Origin: an uncultured Candidatus Saccharibacteria bacterium
GTDB taxonomy: Bacteria > Patescibacteriota > Minisyncoccia > 2-02-FULL-40-12 > GWA2-44-9
Length of the DNA stretch: 64,000 nt
NCBI GenBank assembly: GCA_964513645.1
Contig: CAZENF010000001.1
Coordinates: 71,303-135,302 of the forward strand
Reading direction: 5' to 3'
Below the pieces are notes generated by a model, which was not told where the DNA came from, searched no databases, and saw only the letters and a list, made by a program, of their open reading frames with translations. Position numbers and translations under genes: made by a program. Shown here one piece after another: positions 14,855 through 62,923 of the stretch. Position 1 is the first letter of the stretch, and each line of letters begins with the position of its first letter.

Positions 14855-14966
14855 TTTGCATCGAGGGACCCATTAGGTCGCCCGCGAGGGGTCCCATTGT
14901 GGTTTTGCTCCTTATGCTTTCGAGAAACACAATGGGGACACGCGTAGGCGACCAAGAGGGTCGATG
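14855..14966 (-). promoter_or_regulatory. GC-rich structured intergenic element between rpsM and rpsK
   Basis: Nested inverted repeats: ggaccc...gggtcc, then ccccattgtg...cacaatgggg. GC-rich in an AT-rich operon. It contains AAGGAG-N10-ATG, opening a 16-codon uORF whose TAA overlaps rpsK codons 2-3. Confidence 0.35.
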
Positions 14967-17954: not shown

Positions 17955-18899
17955 TTACCACGATTTAGCTAAAAGCAAATCAACAGCTTCTTTTTTACCC
18001 TTAGTATCCATCAATTTAGCCCTGAACTCCTTGGCTCCGGGATAATTATTGATATATATCTTAAAAAATCTCTTCATAACATCAAAGTTCTTTCCTTCGG
18101 GCCAAAGTTTATCAAAATTATTGATATGCTTTAGCAATATCTTTACCCTCTCTTCCGGTTCGGCAACATCTCGGCCCGAGAAAAACCACGGATTTTGGAA
18201 TATTCCCCTGCCAACCATAATTCCGTCGAGACCGTATTGTTCGGCTTTTTGCTTTAGATCTTCCATGTTAACGACATCTCCGTTCCCGATAAATATTTTT
18301 CCTGAATTTCTAACGGTATCTAAAATTTTACCCAATTCATCCCAATGAGCCGGAACTTTGGACATTTCCTTGCGAGTCCGAGCATGAATTGATAAAGCTG
18401 TTATATCCGTATCGATAAGATGTTTCGGCCAATCAGGTTCAATCCTGTTGTAGCCAAGACGAGTTTTAACAGATACCGGAAGCGGACCCGCTCCACGAAT
18501 AGTTTCTTTGATAACCTTCTTTGCCAACTCCGGATCTTTTATCATCATCGCTCCGGCACCTTGTTTTTCCACCGACTTATCCGGACAACCCATGTTTATG
18601 TCTATTCCGTCAAAACCAAGTTCTTGGGCTAATTGGGCGCAGCGATACATGTTTTCAGGCACGGCTGAAAAGAACTGGACTACAATCGGCCTTTCGTTCT
18701 TTTCAAAATATAGTTCACCCCTGAATTTTTCTTTTCCAACCGCACATATCCCGTCGGCTGAAATAAATTCCGTGAAAAAAACATCCGGTCTCCCGGTTTC
18801 GATAATTATCTGCCTGAAGGCCCAATCGGTCACATTTGCCATCGGCGCCAGGACCGTAAAGGGCTTTTTTAACTTCTGCCAGAAATTATTCGTGGTCAT
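17955..18899 (-). CDS. dus: tRNA-dihydrouridine synthase (DusB-like)
   Basis: TIM-barrel flavoprotein motifs (LAPMANVTDWAFRQI, DGIDINMGCP). 314 aa. Confidence 0.85.
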   Translation of the reverse strand: MTTNNFWQKLKKPFTVLAPMANVTDWAFRQIIIETGRPDVFFTEFISADGICAVGKEKFRGELYFEKNERPIVVQFFSAVPENMYRCAQLAQELGFDGIDINMGCPDKSVEKQGAGAMMIKDPELAKKVIKETIRGAGPLPVSVKTRLGYNRIEPDWPKHLIDTDITALSIHARTRKEMSKVPAHWDELGKILDTVRNSGKIFIGNGDVVNMEDLKQKAEQYGLDGIMVGRGIFQNPWFFSGRDVAEPEERVKILLKHINNFDKLWPEGKNFDVMKRFFKIYINNYPGAKEFRAKLMDTKGKKEAVDLLLAKSW

Positions 18900-18900
18900 A

Positions 18901-19127
18901 GCAGAATTATATCCCTATCTCCGACCGGATGTCCAAAATCTCTGCGCATTTTGGCACCCTATCCCCTCGGCATTTCGAAGATCCGTTGTTAAGTCCGTGC
19001 TTATTTGTTACCGAAAATTATTCGTCAAAGCTCTAATTTTCGAACAAATGGGCACGACCGCCTTACGGCGCCTTATTGATGAGCCGAAATGCCTGCGGGA
19101 AATTCGGACTTAGAGATATAATTCTGC
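18901..19127. other. candidate structured RNA or MITE-like element bounded by 13-bp inverted repeats, strand unresolved
   Basis: gcagaattatatc at 18901-18913 pairs with gatataattctgc at 19115-19127. The 200-nt interior is GC-rich with several internal helices. It has weak, topologically inconsistent resemblance to RNase P CR-I and CR-V. Confidence 0.3.
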
Positions 19128-19182
19128 TATTTTGTTTAGCTATTTTAGTAAAAACATAGAATTTAACAGGAAAAAGCTAATC

Positions 19183-37164: not shown

Positions 37165-38688
37165 CTACACCCTTTTTAATTCAGCCAAGGAATTCTTTAA
37201 CTTCTTCTCCGTCTCGTCATCCAATAAATTAGTTTCTTTAATTCTTTTCAAAACGTCACCGTGAAGTTTCTCAATATTATCAAGTATTTTTGTTGAAACC
37301 TTGCTCACATTCTCAACTTTTACGTCATCAAGATATCCGTTCGTCGCCATATATATCTCGACGACCTGCTTTTCAAATGGTATCGGCTCGTTGTCGACTT
37401 GTTTTAAAATTTCGGTCAGACGCTGGCCGCGAGCAATCTGTTTTTTCGTATTTTCATCAAGATCTGAAGCAAATTGAACGAAGGCCTGAAGTTCCCGGAA
37501 TTGAGCCAGATCAAGACGCAATTTACCGGCAACCTTTTTCATCGCTTTGGTTTGGGCGGAAGAACCGACACGGGAAACAGATAATCCCGCATTTACTGCC
37601 GGACGCAGGCCTTTATAGAAAAGGTCGGATTCAAGATATATCTGACCGTCGGTGATAGAAATAACATTCGTCGGAATATAGGCCGAAACATCCCCCAACT
37701 GCGTCTCAATTATCGGCAAAGCGGTTAAGGAACCGCCTCCATTGTCTTTGTTCATCTTAGCTGCTCTTTCAAGTAATCGAGCATGGAGATAAAAAATATC
37801 GCCCGGATAAGCTTCACGCCCCGGCGGACGGCGCAAAAGCAATGACAATTGACGGTAAGAATCAGCATGTTTAGACAGGTCATCATACACCACAAGAGCA
37901 TCCTCGCCTTTATCCATAAAATATTCCCCTATCGCACAACCGGCGAACGGAGCCAGATACTGAAGAGAGGCGGGAGAAGAGGCCGGAGCAGAAACAATTA
38001 TTGAATATTTTAAAGCGCCTTTATCTTCAAGGGTTTTGATGAGTTTGGCTATTTTTGAATTTTTTTGGCCAATAGCAACGTACACGCAAACAACTTGGCG
38101 TCTTCCTGAATCGCGGCCCTGATTTATTATCGCATCCAAAACTATTGCCGTTTTTCCGGTTTGACGATCACCGATGATTAGTTCTCTCTGGCCTCGCCCG
38201 ATAGGTATCATAGAATCGATAGATTTGATGCCCGTATGTAAAGGTGTCGTCACTGGTTCCCTGGCAACAACCGAAGGAGCTTTGCGTTCAAGCGGATAAT
38301 CTTTAGCTTTTTTAGGATCTGAAAAAATCACTCCCTTGCCATCGAGCGGGTTGCCCAAAGGATCCACGACTCGTCCTAAGAGTTCCGGCCCAGCCTTAAT
38401 AGATACCACGTTTCCGGTTTGTTTTACTCGGTCGCCGACGTTGACTTTTTGGGCGTCGCCAAGAATAACAACGCCGATAAAACTTTCTTCGAGATTGAAC
38501 GCAATCCCCGCCACATCGCCTTTTGTGGTTTCTATATTTAAAAGTTCCTGGCTAAGGGCTCTCGAAAGACCCGAGATCTTCGCAATTCCATCCCCAACCT
38601 CGGTCACTATACCGACATGTTCAAATTCGGCCTTATTTTTGTAGCCGGAAATTTCTTTCTTAAGTTTTTCTATTATCTCATAAGACAT
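37165..38688 (-). CDS. atpA: F1 ATP synthase alpha subunit
   Basis: [19 protein letters not shown]-loop. The start is placed at the ATG for MSYEIIEKL at 38688. The track ORF extends to a TTG at 38739, inside the repeat element. Confidence 0.95.
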
Positions 38689-38701
38689 GTTTGATTTAAG
38701 C

Positions 38702-38836
38702 AAATGGCTATATTCTTTCGCTACCGTTCGCTCGCCCAACGAGCTCGCTCACTGCCTTTCGTCGGTCGCTCTCTCGCTTCGCTCGAACCATGCCCGCTTC
38801 CCTCCTCGAAGCGCGCGAGAAGAACATAGCTATTTG
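38702..38836 (-). promoter_or_regulatory. GC-rich structured leader element, copy A of a two-copy family, immediately 5' of atpA
   Basis: Conserved core shared with 48281-48431: ttcgctaccgttcg ... cactgccttcgtcggtcgctc ... gaaccatgcccgcttccctcctcRaagcgcgcgagaag. It is flanked by copy-specific terminal inverted repeats of 13-15 nt that covary between the two copies. Confidence 0.5.
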
Positions 38837-38847
38837 CTTAACTAATT

Positions 38848-39225
38848 TTATTTAAATAATTTTTTAAGCTTATTGTTCAAAGAATTGTCCAACTCCTGAT
38901 CGCCATTGATCGTCACCCTGACTCCGGCGACCAAGGAAGGGTTTAGTTTAAATTCAACACGGTCTTTTTTTGAAAAATTTTTCTTAATATTATCTATCTG
39001 GGAAACGCTCGCTTCTCTCGCTAATTCAACGATTACCCAATTTCCGCCGTTCAAACTAACGGCCTTTCTTTGAATTTTATTTAATATCTCGTCTTTGTGG
39101 GAAATATCGCCGTTTTTTTTCAGTAATTTTATAAAATTAGGAACAATGGACGCTCTCTCGACAGCCGGAATTTCATCTAACACATCCAGAAAAGCATCAA
39201 CGTAATTGTTTATTAAATATTTCAT
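38848..39225 (-). CDS. atpH: F1 ATP synthase delta (OSCP) subunit, short form
   Basis: Position between atpF and atpA. 125 aa, helical with an OSCP-like C-terminus. Confidence 0.6.
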   Translation of the reverse strand: MKYLINNYVDAFLDVLDEIPAVERASIVPNFIKLLKKNGDISHKDEILNKIQRKAVSLNGGNWVIVELAREASVSQIDNIKKNFSKKDRVEFKLNPSLVAGVRVTINGDQELDNSLNNKLKKLFK

Positions 39226-39363
39226 TTTATTTGACTAATTCTATCCTATCTGTTAATATAATTTTGCAACGTTTGGAAGTCGACTTCTGGCCGTTGAAGT
39301 GGGTATTGAGTGGTTGGACCTTTTTTGTCCTTCCCAGTCCAAAAGGACCAATACCCGCCTTTT

Positions 39364-46716: not shown

Positions 46717-46869
46717 TTAGCCCCGGAAGTAGTTACCGAGCTTGCCCTTGTGCTTGTGGCGGGTGTTGTGGCGCCGCGCCGCCTGCCGTGCCGCATGGCC
46801 ATGGCCCTGCTTCGCACTGCCATGGCGGTGAAGCTCCCGCTTCAATCTGTTCTCTCTCTTCCTGGCCAT
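46717..46869 (-). CDS. hypothetical highly basic 50-aa protein, GC-rich
   Basis: MARKRENRLKRELHRHGSAKQGHGHAARQAARRHNTRHKHKGKLGNYFRG, with RBS GGAGG 7 nt upstream. GC3 is far above genome background. Confidence 0.4.
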   Translation of the reverse strand: MARKRENRLKRELHRHGSAKQGHGHAARQAARRHNTRHKHKGKLGNYFRG

Positions 46870-46906
46870 TGGGCTGCCTCCTAAACAAAGTATTAACAAT
46901 TTCTTT

Positions 46907-48286
46907 CTAAATTATATCACTATTTTTAATATGTGTCAATAATCCGGCCGAGAACCAGAACACTATCCTCCCCTGCTGAAGGGTCATTAAAAAATGGTCG
47001 AAAAAGCCAATGAACAAAACAGAGATGAAAAAAAACAGAACCGAAAGCTGGTAAGATTTACTAAGCTTTGTCTTCAGGATAAAATCTTTTAACAAAAAAT
47101 ATAAAAATAAAATGAATGCCGTCAGACCTAAAAGACCGGTTTCTGAATAGATGAGCAGGTATATGTTATGGACCGGCTGATAAGCATAATTAGGAAGCAT
47201 CGGCTGTTTTTCCATCAGCCAGTTCACGAAATTACCAGCACCTACGCCAAGAAAATTAATTCCCCCTCCAGTCATTAAAGCCACTTTGTTGTAAAAACCC
47301 CTTAGTTCTACGGCCTGATCATCCGGGTTTATAGTTGAACGGGTTATTATAGCTTTGAAATAAATTGAACCGAAAAGGAGAATAACCACAAAACCCGCAA
47401 TAAGAATGGCTTTTATACGTTGCCGGCTTTCATCGGTCCCAAATATTATTCGGTAATGTTTTCTTGATAAAATTATTATGCCACGAATACAAAAAGTGAT
47501 GAACCAGATAAAAATAACGACCCTCGAAAAGGTCGCAAAAAACCCAAAAAGGATAACGCCGTAGGACAAAATAAAAAATTTATCCCAGTTGTCTGATAAG
47601 GGGCTGTGCTCTACATGAATCTTCGAATATAAATAAACAAAATAAAACGCAAAAATGGATAAGAACAGAGAACCAGCCAGAACGTTCGGATGCGGAGTTG
47701 TGCCATAAGCACGTATGAATTTATCCCCGTTTTGAAGATAGAATGAAGCCACCCCGGCAAGTTCTTTGTTCAGAACGCTTTCACCCAGATATTTAAGCCC
47801 CAGGCTTGATTGTTTGAACAACTGGGTCATTGCGATCAAGGCTTGGAAAACTCCTCCGGATAATATTGCCAAGAATGTTTTATATAAATCGAATTTGGCT
47901 AAAGCGTATCTCGAGATATAAAAATAAAAAACAACAAATTCAACTAATTTAAACCATTGATACCAACTAACCGTAATGTTGGTCGAATTTTTTATAGAAA
48001 TAAGAGAGATGGTCAAAAAAATAACAAGCCAGGGGTCAGACGTTTTAAGCTTTGATTTTAAAAATTCAAACTTGTTCGGAGGTTGGAATTTAGGATTTGT
48101 GTTTTTTTGATAAGAGTTTAAAAACCAAAAAATAAATAAAACGGCCAGTAATATATCCGTCAGATAAACACTGACCGATAGCCATTCATTAAAACGCCAA
48201 TCCGAATACCATAAGATCTTCCTGGTCTCAAAAGGAATACAAAACAAAAAAACATAAAAAAGACATTTTTCGAGTTTCAGAAACAT
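46907..48286 (-). CDS. O-antigen ligase / Wzy-like polytopic membrane protein
   Basis: 459 aa, more than 10 TM helices and a large periplasmic loop. Confidence 0.5.
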   Translation of the reverse strand: MFLKLEKCLFYVFLFCIPFETRKILWYSDWRFNEWLSVSVYLTDILLAVLFIFWFLNSYQKNTNPKFQPPNKFEFLKSKLKTSDPWLVIFLTISLISIKNSTNITVSWYQWFKLVEFVVFYFYISRYALAKFDLYKTFLAILSGGVFQALIAMTQLFKQSSLGLKYLGESVLNKELAGVASFYLQNGDKFIRAYGTTPHPNVLAGSLFLSIFAFYFVYLYSKIHVEHSPLSDNWDKFFILSYGVILFGFFATFSRVVIFIWFITFCIRGIIILSRKHYRIIFGTDESRQRIKAILIAGFVVILLFGSIYFKAIITRSTINPDDQAVELRGFYNKVALMTGGGINFLGVGAGNFVNWLMEKQPMLPNYAYQPVHNIYLLIYSETGLLGLTAFILFLYFLLKDFILKTKLSKSYQLSVLFFFISVLFIGFFDHFLMTLQQGRIVFWFSAGLLTHIKNSDII

Positions 48287-48431
48287 GGCTTTAACCTTTC
48301 GCTACCGTTCGTATTCCCAGCGAGAATCCTCACTGCCTTCGTCGGTCGCTCCCTTGTCCTTCGGACAAGAACCATGCCCGCTTCCCTCCTCAAAGCGCGC
48401 GAGAAGGTTAAAGCCATGTTTCTTAATTATC
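48281..48431 (-). promoter_or_regulatory. GC-rich structured leader element, copy B, overlapping the start codon of the Wzy-like gene
   Basis: Same conserved core as 38702-38836. It has perfect 15-nt terminal inverted repeats, aaacatggctttaacc and ggttaaagccatgtt, that include the ATG at 48284-48286. It also has an internal C(UUCG)G tetraloop hairpin. Confidence 0.5.
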
Positions 48432-48470
48432 TTCGCTAAATTATATCTTAATTATTAAGGTTTTGTTGTA

Positions 48471-48499
48471 TTGACAAATTAATAATTTAATAGTATAAT
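48471..48499 (+). promoter_or_regulatory. consensus sigma70 promoter (TTGACA, 17-nt spacer, TATAAT)
   Basis: Perfect hexamers read directly. It drives a GC-rich 5' UTR of about 170 nt. Confidence 0.6.
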
Positions 48500-48506
48500 A
48501 CGGGGT

Positions 48507-48677
48507 AGTACGTTGGAATCCTGCTCATAGGACAGCCGGTACGGGAAAGCGGTAGTTTGTTTAAGACAAAATAAAAAAGTTGAAAAACAATCTCCCGTAG
48601 ACCGAATCCAGGTTGAACACAGCCCTCGCCGCAATCTCGCGGCCGGCAATCTTCTGCTAAGGCAGAGGAGGTGTCCC
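48507..48677 (+). promoter_or_regulatory. structured GC-rich 5' UTR, a candidate cis-regulatory RNA
   Basis: Long-range pairing of tacggga at 48528-48534 with tcccgta at 48596-48602. Repeated gaatcc motifs. RBS GGAGG before the ATG at 48678. Confidence 0.3.
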
Positions 48678-49097
48678 ATGAGCTTGACCCTGTTCCGCGC
48701 TGATGTGATCGAGGTTCTTGTGAAAATGGAACTGGCACCCTACCAGTTCCACCTCACGGGTTCCCGGTTCTTCGGCCGCGCTACCCCTGGTTCGGATTGG
48801 GACTTCTTCGTGGAATTCAATCCGGACCTGGAGGGCTGGCTGATCTGTAACGGATTCTACCAAGAATCTTCTACAGACTACGCTTCAGCAGACATCTCTG
48901 AGGTTTGGAAGCATGTATCGTTCCCGATACATGTCCAAGTCATCAGCGATGCCCGCTTGAAAGCGGACGTCCAGAATCACCTGCAGAACTATTCGCACAC
49001 GCTCTATGGTGTGCCGAAAGAGTACCGCAAGGCGATCTGGAACCTTGCCTTTGACCTGTTTCAAACAGGCCAAAGACAAGCCGCCGAGCTTTTCTAA
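48678..49097 (+). CDS. small nucleotidyltransferase-fold protein (Pol-beta superfamily motif GS...SDxD)
   Basis: GSRFFGRATPGSDWDFFVEF matches hG[GS]x9-13Dh[DE]h. 139 aa. GC-rich codon usage. Followed by a long terminator hairpin (agctccgcac...gtgcggagct plus T-run) at 49098-49150. Confidence 0.45.
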   Translation: MSLTLFRADVIEVLVKMELAPYQFHLTGSRFFGRATPGSDWDFFVEFNPDLEGWLICNGFYQESSTDYASADISEVWKHVSFPIHVQVISDARLKADVQNHLQNYSHTLYGVPKEYRKAIWNLAFDLFQTGQRQAAELF

Positions 49098-59699: not shown

Positions 59700-60330
59700 C
59701 GGTAAAGTTCTTTATATGCAATAAGCGTTGTGGGTTCAGAAAGGGCCTACTAAGAAGCAATTAGCTCTTTACATACAGGCCCTTTCCGAGCCCCTAGCAC
59801 GCAAGTAAATTAAGGCGGCGGCGAAGCAGTAGATGCACGCGGCTGCCACCTCCGCTGGGGGCTCGCTCAGTGATGCGGCCAAGGGCCCTTCACCTCTATG
59901 TCGTATGGGATACGTGTTTATCCCCCAAGCTCGTCCGCCGCCCTAAATAGGCGGACAAAGGTAATTTCCCCCGGCAAATGTTCGGGGCCAAAAAGGAGCT
60001 TTTGCATGAGAGGTATAAGCCCCTTGATGGCAGGGAGCCATCGCGGATAGCTGGGATCCGAACACCCCAGACAAGGGAGGGCTCAAGCCCTCCCACCTTC
60101 ATCCATAGTCTCAAAAATTTTGAGGATATAGACGAGGGTTGAGAGATGTGTGCGCATAGACGTAAAGTCGGCGACCGAAAGTACGCCCGAGAACGCTTTG
60201 CCCCTTCTCTCCCCTCACCTTTCCTGATCCCGGCAAGTGACCGGGGTAGGATAATCAAATACATCGGTAAGGCACACAAGGAGCAACGATGCGCTCCTTC
60301 GGTGGAACGCCGGGTTGAACACCCGGCTTT
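59700..60330 (+). ncRNA. candidate large structured non-coding RNA of about 630 nt, GC-rich and flanked by promoter and terminator
   Basis: No credible ORF. Many perfect helices: aaagggcct/aggcccttt (9 bp), gtccgcc/ggcggac, gggagggc/gccctccc (8 bp), cccgg/ccggg. Also ggcggcgg at 59814 pairing with ccgccgcc at 59936. It ends in an intrinsic terminator ccgggt-tgaaca-acccgg plus T5 at 60311-60333. No downstream plus-strand gene. Confidence 0.45.
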
Positions 60331-62073: not shown

Positions 62074-62329
62074 AAAAATAAAATGTGAGATAGTTGGTTA
62101 TATTTATTTTAAAACCAGCGAAGCTCTTTTATTTCGTAGACCGTCTTTTTTCGAGCGGCTAAATGCTTAAATTAATTAAAAATTAAGTTATTCAACAAAT
62201 TTGAGGGGAGGTCTTCCGACGAGGCTCAAATTTGTTAGCTTAATTGAGATTAATTTAAACATTTAGCCATGAAGATAAAAAGTAGGTCGAAAAATGAAAG
62301 GGCAAAGCAATTAAAATAAATATCCCAAA

Positions 62330-62923
62330 CTATCTCTTCCCCAATATCTTTAACGCCTCCCTTACCCTTTCCTCCAAAGTTTTACCTTTTGATTCTTTCA
62401 AAGCCTCCTTGGCCTGATATTGAGTATAGCCAAGAGCCAGAAGTGCTTCGACGGCCTGACCCTCCTGACCCAAATCAACGCCTTTCATGTCGCCGATATC
62501 AAGAAAATCTATCTTATTCTTAAGCTCAAGCACCAAACGCTGGACGGTTTTGGGACCAAGTCCGGAAACTTTTTTTAAGTAATCTGCGTCTTCGTTCACG
62601 ACTGCAGCTTTTAAATGTTTGGGTTCAACGACTGACAGAATATTCATCGCACCTTTTGGACCAATGCCGGAGACCGAGGTCAACAAATGGAATAGGTCCA
62701 AATCCTCTGATTTATCGAATCCGTACATATCAAAAGTCCCTTCACGCATATTGAGTTGCGAATGAGTAAACAGCTTAACTTTGCCATTGACATCCTCCCT
62801 GGTTTTTGATAGAATATTCACTAACTTGGGAGAGACTATTACCCTGTACCCTATACCACCGGCACTCAAAACGACCTGTTTTTCACCCAAATGTTCAATT
62901 TTACCTTCGAGAAAACTGATCAT
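62330..62923 (-). CDS. ruvA: Holliday junction branch-migration protein RuvA
   Basis: N-terminal OB fold (MISFLEGKIEHLGEKQVVLSAGGIGYRV) and HhH pairs (GIGPKGA, GLGPKTVQRL). Confidence 0.85.
   Translation of the reverse strand: MISFLEGKIEHLGEKQVVLSAGGIGYRVIVSPKLVNILSKTREDVNGKVKLFTHSQLNMREGTFDMYGFDKSEDLDLFHLLTSVSGIGPKGAMNILSVVEPKHLKAAVVNEDADYLKKVSGLGPKTVQRLVLELKNKIDFLDIGDMKGVDLGQEGQAVEALLALGYTQYQAKEALKESKGKTLEERVREALKILGKR

Follow-up and report, generated by a model that had tools for sequence, protein, structure and literature searches.

The 64,000-nucleotide (nt) stretch of DNA considered here, termed ‘the window’ and used for numbering throughout, contains two copies of a small, structured, GC-rich element, one located between the ATP synthase genes atpH and atpA and the other in the 5′ leader of a Wzy_C (O-antigen-ligase family) gene. 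Two further copies occur in a related genome, and together the four (n = 4, in two genomes) represent a previously undescribed family of non-coding, hairpin-closed elements of Parcubacteria-type bacteria of the candidate phyla radiation (CPR). The explanation we favor, and to which we assign a probability of about one half, is that this is a small interspersed element akin to a miniature inverted-repeat transposable element (MITE) or a repetitive extragenic palindrome (REP), that it is selected as an RNA fold, and that it masks the start region of the gene downstream or causes that region to be processed. Assignment to the CPR is reasonable since the closest named homologues of the Wzy_C protein come from Candidatus Taylorbacteria and Yanofskybacteria. 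The copies are designated ‘wA’ (copy A, atp operon) and ‘wB’ (copy B, Wzy_C) in the window, and ‘L016_1’ and ‘L016_2’ in the related contig L016 (ENA ERZ27284378). Both window copies are read on the minus strand, as are the genes that adjoin them.

An initial annotation, made from the letters of the window, had proposed a pair of repeats with a conserved core, one in the atpH–atpA interval and one just 5′ of a Wzy-like gene. Reading and aligning the two sites confirmed the repeats, the core and the identity of the flanking genes, and moved the boundaries: wA extends from 38696 to 38841 rather than from 38702 to 38836, and wB from 48279 to 48423 rather than from 48281 to 48431, making each ~145 nt in length. 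The two are 83–85% identical over ~150 aligned columns and share a ~105-nt GC-rich core that includes the blocks CTTCTCGCGCGCTTYGAGGAGGGAAGCGGGCATGGTTC, GAGCGACCGACG, AAGGCAGTGAG and CGAACGGTAGCGAAAG. A 23-mer from this core is present twice where zero occurrences are expected, and neither repeat searches nor covariance-model searches found a third copy in the window, in which wA and wB are the sole repeat of this kind. The GC content of the element is 53–56%, and that of segments within the core 62–66%, versus 42% for the window. Copy wA occupies most of the 159-nt interval between atpH and atpA (6 nt of spacer on the 5′ side, 146 nt of element and 7 nt of spacer on the 3′ side), and two separately assembled Logan data sets from this organism, which is present in SRR12313479 and SRR12313480, give an identical sequence. 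Covariance-model scores are 151–158 bits for wA and 169–171 bits for wB. The motif GCGAG occurs four to five times in wA, exactly where wA and wB differ, and the region 3′ of L016_1 (L016 2190–2240) contains three occurrences of GCGAGAG.

On the minus, gene-sense strand, the element is predicted to fold as a closing helix, P1 (GGCU/AGCC, and CUUCUC/GAAAG with a bulged C), followed by P2, the junction GCAUGGUU, P3, the segment AGRGAGCGA and a 7-bp hairpin, CAGUGAG-N4-CUCGYUG. P1 comprises 20 bp in wA (18 Watson–Crick, one G·U and one A·C) and 18 perfect bp in wB; the arms therefore measure 18–20 nt, not the 13–15 nt of the first estimate, and the extended wA helix ends 7 nt, not 13 nt, before the atpA ATG. 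Conserved in all four members are both parts of P1 just given, including the bulged C, the base of P2, GCAUGGUU, AGRGAGCGA and GCUGG...GUAGCGA. In DNA terms, blocks of the family include GCAGTGAGGATTCTCGCTGGGAATNCGAACGGTAGCGAAAGG and the pair CTTCTC...GCATGGTT. Outer P1, distal P2 and P3, on the other hand, vary. Distal P2 is a 7-nt GAGGAGG loop in the window copies versus an insert of ~65 nt in L016_1, and P3, a stem of 5–9 bp capped by a GAA loop in wA and wB, is a 20-bp AT hairpin in L016_1. Conservation is accordingly very uneven: a 42-nt block of L016_1, GCAGTGAGGATTCTCGCTGGGAATCCGAACGGTAGCGAAAGG, differs from wB at a single position, and adjoins helices that are wholly replaced. Two mutually exclusive hairpins, ‘X’ and ‘Y’, are possible in the 3′ half of the element (partly a direct reading).

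The helices have been maintained by paired changes, as the initial annotation had suggested for the terminal arms. In a common register, the outer helices of wA and wB have changed on both sides at seven pairs and are still complementary. Over all helices, 97% of the proposed pairs form in wA and wB, compared with 35–45% when the partners are slid, and there are eight double changes. When the inner 16 bp of P1 are examined across the four copies, 96.9% of cells are paired, 7/16 pairs have undergone double changes, and 0/500 shuffles match. Four sequences are too few for a formal covariation test, and P1 is the best supported of the helices, the changes seen in the inner ones being G-C to G·U replacements and a few double changes. 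The pairing is also strand-specific. Non-Watson–Crick pairs on the sense strand number 13 G·U against one A·C (~10:1 as independent events, some pairs being shared by descent), and on the opposite strand these G·U pairs would read as A·C mismatches. In wA and wB alike, the minus strand folds better than the plus strand by ~9 kcal/mol (z = −7.1 for wB), and at three helices Watson–Crick pairs are replaced by tandem G·A/A·G mismatches, a motif that is stable in RNA. All four copies are oriented in the sense of the downstream gene. Random orientation and a lack of stem covariation had been named at the outset as signs of a plain repeat; the contrary is seen. Covariation, the bias toward G·U, the better fold of the minus strand and the uniform orientation thus argue for selection upon a sense-strand RNA fold, rather than upon a DNA palindrome.

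Both further copies came to light in L016. The decisive step was the fetching of loci: L016 was obtained through its Wzy_C homologue, the protein product of which is 61% identical to that of the window. L016_1 (L016 1972–2188; 98 bits) lies in a 412-nt gap upstream of this orthologue, and shares CCTTCTCGCGCGC, GCGGGCATGGTT and AGAGCGA with the window copies. L016_2 (L016 6230–6381), found with a covariance model, ‘R2’, built from three sequences, is more diverged; the gap that holds it is 470 nt long and precedes a peptidase_S8 gene. Local-alignment z-scores against shuffled sequences are 49 for wA–wB, 25 for wB–L016_1, 11 for wA–L016_1, 5.7 for L016_1–L016_2 and 4.1 for wA–L016_2; the copies range in length from 145 to 217 nt. 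These four are the sure members of the family, and the element models gave no further match in the 64-kb window and ~300 kb of related loci. A possible distant relative is the leader of the Wzy gene in L028, from a Yanofskybacteria genome. It has the same order of helices with GCAUGGUUC at the same place, and scores 15.8 bits with R2 (E ~3e-4 in 500 nt), but is not significant by sequence alone in the z-score test. Homology is not supported for the leader of locus L034 and an insert between atpG and atpD in locus L010: their covariance-model matches rest on the outer hairpin only, their sequence z-scores are ≤2.3, and what they have in common with the element is architecture alone (AT-rich arms and a GC-rich core). 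The insert in question (L010/L011 12862–12992) forms part of a 172-nt atpG–atpD spacer, versus a 4-nt overlap of these genes in the window, and has perfect 14-bp AT-rich arms around a ~100-nt GC-rich core, ending 11 nt before the ATG.

The sites occupied by the element are empty in relatives. In L008 and L010, the AtpH proteins of which are 54% and 43% identical, respectively, to that of the window, the atpH TAA directly abuts the atpA ATG. The gene order MgtC, amino-acid permease, Wzy_C, small protein is kept among relatives, and the distance from permease to Wzy is 5 nt in L014 and 11 nt in L035, whereas in the window it is ~900 nt, comprising a plus-strand NTP_transf_2 gene and wB. No element was found upstream of Wzy in L014, L015, L035 and L036, and 4/8 sampled Wzy orthologues are without any leader. 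Between the VTT and S8 genes there are 470 nt in L016 but 39 nt in L028, and in L015 the two genes overlap by 4 nt. The Wzy ATG (48286–48284) falls within the 3′ arm of wB, as first noticed. Homologues of Wzy_C begin MFLKLEKY, MLNKLEKY and the like, and so the native start is the ATG TTT CTG (MFL) of this arm; these first codons recur, in reverse complement, as the outer 8 nt of the 5′ arm. Part of the wB arm is thus native coding sequence, and the arms are not simply transposon ends.

Sequestration of start sites, which the initial annotation had put forward for both copies, is predicted for wB and for both copies in L016, but not for wA. According to thermodynamic predictions of the probability of being unpaired, the Wzy AUG has a value of 0.00 when wB is present, and positions −4 to +9 average 0.04; removing the 5′ arm and core of wB raises the three AUG bases to 0.41–0.86 and the average to 0.42. 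The start AUGs downstream of L016_1 and L016_2, masked by further outer helices, are predicted at 0.00–0.04 and 0.01, respectively. At atpA, predicted accessibility is 0.65 with wA and 0.60 without it, which speaks against masking there. Three of the four copies, then, are predicted to keep the start codon fully paired, the one at atpA being the exception. Shine–Dalgarno (SD) sites are mostly absent from the window: an SD-like motif lies within 18 nt of the first ATG in 1/57 long open reading frames (ORFs), and leaders are AU-rich. Two clear SD-led genes, 48678 (+) and 46899 (−), flank the Wzy gene.

How might such an element work? We envisage rare spread at the DNA level, by insertion into intergenic spots just upstream of genes, after which the element would be transcribed in the gene sense within the mRNA, and its RNA would fold as an autonomous multi-helix domain, on which selection would act. 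Since the host appears to initiate translation on unstructured AU-rich leaders, mostly without SD sites, the 18–20-bp closing helix or the further outer helices would hold the start codon in duplex (wB, L016_1 and L016_2), and those genes should therefore be expressed only as far as the helix is opened or cut. The likeliest opener would be a double-strand-specific RNase of the RNase III type, or a factor with affinity for the conserved core. At the atp locus, the helix would simply loop the insert out and leave the atpA start as accessible as before, and so the insertion of wA would be tolerated. Mobility is suggested by the different loci occupied in each genome, the empty sites, the presence of two copies per genome and adjacency to a second palindromic family (described below). 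Uneven conservation, strand-specific pairing, co-orientation, and a position before one gene that two or three lineages have in common are typical of functional RNAs.

Set against the defining features of MITEs (PMC10969869), the element conforms in size and coding content (145–217 nt, below 500 bp, with a sole ORF that is not conserved) and in dispersal (atpH/atpA and Wzy in the window, Wzy and S8 in L016, and empty sites in relatives). MITEs share inverted ends of ~4–30 bp; here, GGCU...CUUCUC/GAAAG...AGCC is present in all four copies, and the outer 8–10 bp differ between wA and wB. The proposal of a mobile, MITE-like insert fits the empty sites, but the ‘terminal repeat’ of wB is partly native. 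Candidate target duplications are TTAA on both sides of wA, where TTAA is itself palindromic and extends the helix, TTAA/TGAA at wB, and TTAA on one side only of the L016 copies. A MITE with a TTAA duplication at wB was considered and rejected because homologues show MFLK to be the native N-terminus: excision leaving one TTAA would deprive Wzy of a canonical start (..ATA ATT AAA CTC..).

Several observations weigh against the interspersed-element explanation. Sure members number only four, and collection-wide exact-pattern scans, with patterns that demanded the GAGGAGG loop, added none; no transposase or parent insertion sequence (IS) with matching ends was seen in the window or related loci; and the target-site duplication is ambiguous. 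Within this one genome, wA and wB have unlike outer arms, which is not the way of transposon ends, and one of these arms incorporates native codons. The element is GC-rich (core >60%) in a genome of 42% GC, whereas MITEs are typically AT-rich, a typical rather than a strict feature (PMC10969869). Homology at the same gene in two species, and possibly also in L028, fits vertical inheritance of a leader equally well, and a perfect helix of 18 bp would not open easily, so that the supposed ‘gating’ may be constitutive silencing.

The main rival, which we regard as possible but doubtful and which is not mutually exclusive with the explanation we prefer, is a dedicated cis-regulatory leader RNA, riboswitch-like or protein-binding, inherited vertically at Wzy_C and recruited to peptidase_S8 and atpA. 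A ligand or protein on the conserved core would stabilize or destabilize P1 and so control access to the start. Its orthologous placement at Wzy_C in the window and in L016, with core blocks near-identical despite proteins only 61% identical, speaks for this, as does the L028 leader, at the same locus with the same helix layout and GCAUGGUUC; but that homology is not significant by sequence alone, and the element is absent from four other orthologues. Invariant junctions with covarying, length-variable helices are the classic pattern of such RNAs, the X and Y hairpins are mutually exclusive, and start codons are predicted to be sequestered in three copies, but a P1 of 18–27 bp far exceeds the switchable P1 stems of riboswitches, and the atp copy leaves its start site untouched. 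The genes downstream, Wzy_C (two or three times), an S8 protease and ATP synthase alpha, have no obvious ligand in common, and the element co-occurs with another interspersed palindromic family. A related proposal, likewise tentative, is a new class of functional cis-acting RNA specific to CPR bacteria or Parcubacteria: a mobile regulatory module with a conserved domain for sensing or processing, whether of the riboswitch, ribozyme or protein-binding kind, that would gate SD-less translation by locking the start codon in a long helix and would copy itself to new genes. We consider unlikely a palindromic repeat maintained at the DNA level alone, a selfish element of the MITE or REP kind devoid of RNA function, in which template switching within quasi-palindromes, and not selection, would keep or extend the complementarity of the arms. 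It would account for the empty sites, for the wB helix, which is perfect over 18 bp inclusive of native coding sequence and looks templated rather than evolved, and for the company of several other long palindromes in intergenic gaps of this genome and its relatives. It would not account for the 13:1 excess of sense-strand G·U over A·C, the uniform co-orientation with genes, the near-invariant 42 nt beside replaced helices, or the tandem G·A/A·G mismatches in three places.

Less likely still is a portable translation-coupling cassette with its own SD site and AUG, in which ribosomes translating a short ORF would unzip the 3′ arm and pass to the downstream start. Both window copies do contain the GGAGG and AUG to which the initial annotation had drawn attention, spaced 9 nt apart, with GGAGG in the predicted GAGGAGG loop and AUG in the junction, and these open ORFs of 27 (wA) and 32 (wB) codons. 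The frame is the sole one open as far as the 3′ arm in both copies, it ends 19 nt before the atpA ATG in the one and overlaps the Wzy ATG by 10 nt in the other, and SD-led genes do exist in this genome. The arrangement, however, is peculiar to this genome: the GAGGAGG loop is absent from both L016 copies, having been replaced in L016_1 by the ~65-nt insert, and from the conserved AUG the ORF runs for 3 codons in L016_1, 28 in L016_2 and 5 in the L028 leader, with neither length nor sequence conserved. The indels that had been said to shift the frame between the window copies (−4 and +1) do so only in the interval between them, where the peptides are wholly different, and the frame is restored afterwards, which could be taken to favor translation; but single-base differences within conserved blocks keep pairs, not residues (C to U in P2 and U to C in the X hairpin). 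Six-frame peptides queried against 5.8 billion proteins gave no match, an open frame is expected about one time in three in GC-rich sequence, and SD sites are rarely used in the window. Conservation of the peptide among the four members, which would have favored a peptide gene or leader peptide, is not seen.

Other identities were sought without success. At gathering score, none of the four sequences searched (the window, L016, L028 and L034) matched Rfam 15; in E-value mode, there were three far-sub-threshold chance matches at copy A (E 3.4–8.2, 13–20 bits) and none with E ≤1 at copy B. The 20-mer GAGGAGGGAAGCGGGCATGG had four chance matches in 185,579 genomes, and the transition-tolerant pattern RYRYYYYGAGGAGGRRRRYRGGCATGG had one in the Joint Genome Institute (JGI) metagenomes; both patterns demanded the GAGGAGG loop, which L016 lacks. 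Pattern scans of viral contigs gave chance matches only, blastn against phage and plasmid collections gave nothing relevant, and literature searches for such elements in CPR bacteria, or for RNA motifs linked to O-antigen ligases, found nothing. An integron attC site (RYYYAAC/GTTRRRY at the outer ends of the palindrome) was rejected from a direct reading of the boxes: wB has TTTAAC/GTTAAA at the inner end of its arms with the wrong flanking bases, and wA has none. Hammerhead and other self-cleaving ribozymes were rejected for want of any Rfam signal.

Almost nothing is known about non-coding RNAs and gene control in CPR bacteria, the genomes of which are tiny. A structured element situated at translation starts would offer a concrete, testable handle on translational control in these organisms, and would show how small repeats persist in essential operons such as atp. 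If the element is a dedicated sensor, it represents a new class of RNA; if it is a selfish repeat, it clearly exemplifies a mobile element under ‘stealth’ selection at the RNA level. Features of the window copies and their neighbors are collected in Table 1.

Table 1. Positions in the window of the two element copies, their parts and the adjoining genes
Feature	Position	Strand	Remarks
wA, whole element	38696..38841	-	Between atpH stop (38850-38848) and atpA ATG (38688-38686)
wA P1 5′ arm, TTAAGCAAATAGCTATGTTC	38822..38841	-	Pairs with 38696-38715
wA P1 3′ arm, GAATATAGCCATTTGCTTAA	38696..38715	-	Ends 7 nt 5′ of atpA ATG
wA P2 hairpin, CGCUUC-GAGGAGG-GAAGCG	38795..38813	-	SD-like heptaloop
wA junction, GCAUGGUU	38786..38793	-	In all four members and the L028 leader
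wA mini-ORF from conserved AUG	38708..38791	-	27 codons + UAG; stop 19 nt 5′ of atpA ATG
wB, whole element, in 5′ leader of Wzy_C gene	48279..48423	-	Homologue at orthologous site in L016
wB P1 5′ arm, AGAAACATGGCTTTAACC	48406..48423	-	18/18 Watson-Crick pairs
wB P1 3′ arm, GGTTAAAGCCATGTTTCT	48279..48296	-	Holds native ATG TTT CT of Wzy_C gene
wB P2 hairpin, CGCUUU-GAGGAGG-GAAGCG	48379..48397	-	U·G closing pair
wB mini-ORF	48277..48375	-	32 codons + UGA; 10-nt overlap with Wzy ATG (AUGUUUCUGA)
Possible -10 box, TATAAT	48440..48445	-	16 nt upstream of wB; direct reading
atpA	37165..38688	-	Downstream of wA; PF00006, PF00306, PF02874
atpH (OSCP)	38848..39225	-	Upstream of wA; PF00213
Wzy_C / O-antigen-ligase family gene	46907..48286	-	Downstream of wB; PF04932

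If the possible −10 box upstream of wB is used, wB would form the extreme 5′ end of the Wzy mRNA; a consensus scan for promoters found no full promoter on the minus strand. The neighboring NTP_transf_2 block (48471–49097, plus strand) consists of a perfect sigma-70 promoter (TTGACA-17-TATAAT), a ~170-nt GC-rich leader without match in Rfam, a GAGGAGG SD site and the gene, and, being absent between permease and Wzy in L014 and L035, it looks like an inserted cassette. Directly downstream of Wzy, where relatives also have small ORFs, is a 60-codon ORF of 74% GC (46717–46899, minus strand), which has a GGAGG SD site and a terminator-like hairpin behind it, and encodes an Arg/His/Lys-rich peptide with no match in Pfam.

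Other structured sequences are present in the window. An imperfect palindrome of ~250 nt (62087–62336, minus strand; 26-nt outer and 20-nt inner arms) lies between ruvA and a gene for a 157-amino-acid protein, ending 13 nt before the ATG of the latter. It is ~73% identical over ~170 columns to L016 5975–6175, which adjoins L016_2, and from this similarity we regard the two as a second interspersed palindromic family, common to both genomes and occupying unrelated loci. Its arm, TTAAGCATTTAGCC, resembles the outer arm of wA, TTAAGCAAATAGCT. The atp operon also contains a 138-nt structured spacer between atpF and atpH (39226–39363, minus strand), with a stem, GGGTATTG...CAATACCC, and two inner hairpins; because atpF and atpH overlap by 4 nt in relatives, it appears to be a second, unrelated insert. 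At 18898–19130, inverted arms of 27 nt (89% complementary) enclose 179 nt; the arm that is 3′ on the minus strand overlaps the dus start codon (gene at 17955–18899), where it places another long helix, and there is no match in Rfam. The segment 59770–59946 (plus strand; 71% GC) looks structured, overlaps a 17-nt inverted repeat (59732–59793), has no Rfam match at E ≤1, and may be an unannotated RNA gene. Finally, a GC-rich imperfect inverted repeat (14867–14962; 38-nt arms, 74% complementary) occupies a 112-nt gap between minus-strand genes.

Among the known systems closest to the element are the Correia repeat-enclosed elements of Neisseria and the enterobacterial repetitive intergenic consensus (ERIC) sequences, which are co-transcribed, MITE-like repeats. 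These, too, are 100–200 nt in length, non-coding, interspersed and intergenic, including inside operons, and have inverted ends that form a long RNA helix. This helix can serve as an RNase III substrate and alter the expression of the neighboring gene; Correia-element mRNAs are cut by RNase III at the inverted repeats, and MITE transcripts form stable stem-loops (PMC10969869, PMC2649163). Correia and ERIC sequences number tens to hundreds per genome, however, versus the two seen here. The outer arms of the element differ between copies; its core, branched and rich in GC, has been strongly conserved between species; it has no clear TA or target-site duplication and no known parent IS; and native start codons are included in its helix. 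Rickettsia palindromic elements and the BOX, RUP and SPRITE repeats of pneumococci are likewise small, structured repeats of reduced or AT-rich genomes, and are modular, with conserved ends and variable inner modules, and transcribed as stable stem-loops (PMC3049150, PMC2229807). No sequence similarity to these was found (no Rfam match), and whereas the Rickettsia elements often insert in-frame within genes, the copies described here all lie just upstream of genes, in the gene sense.

Translational riboswitches and other leader RNAs offer a different comparison. Like them, the element forms a multi-helix domain in the 5′ leader, the closing helix of which holds the start codon, and orthologous genes of at least two species have kept it, with invariant junctions and covarying helices. 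Unlike them, it has a closing helix that is almost perfect over 18–27 bp, includes one intercistronic copy that masks no start, and is associated with an incoherent set of genes. In RNase III-dependent unmasking, as occurs in the adhE leader of Escherichia coli and in early mRNAs of phages, a duplex that covers the initiation region is cut before translation takes place. The element would likewise place the initiation region in a long duplex that would have to be cut first.

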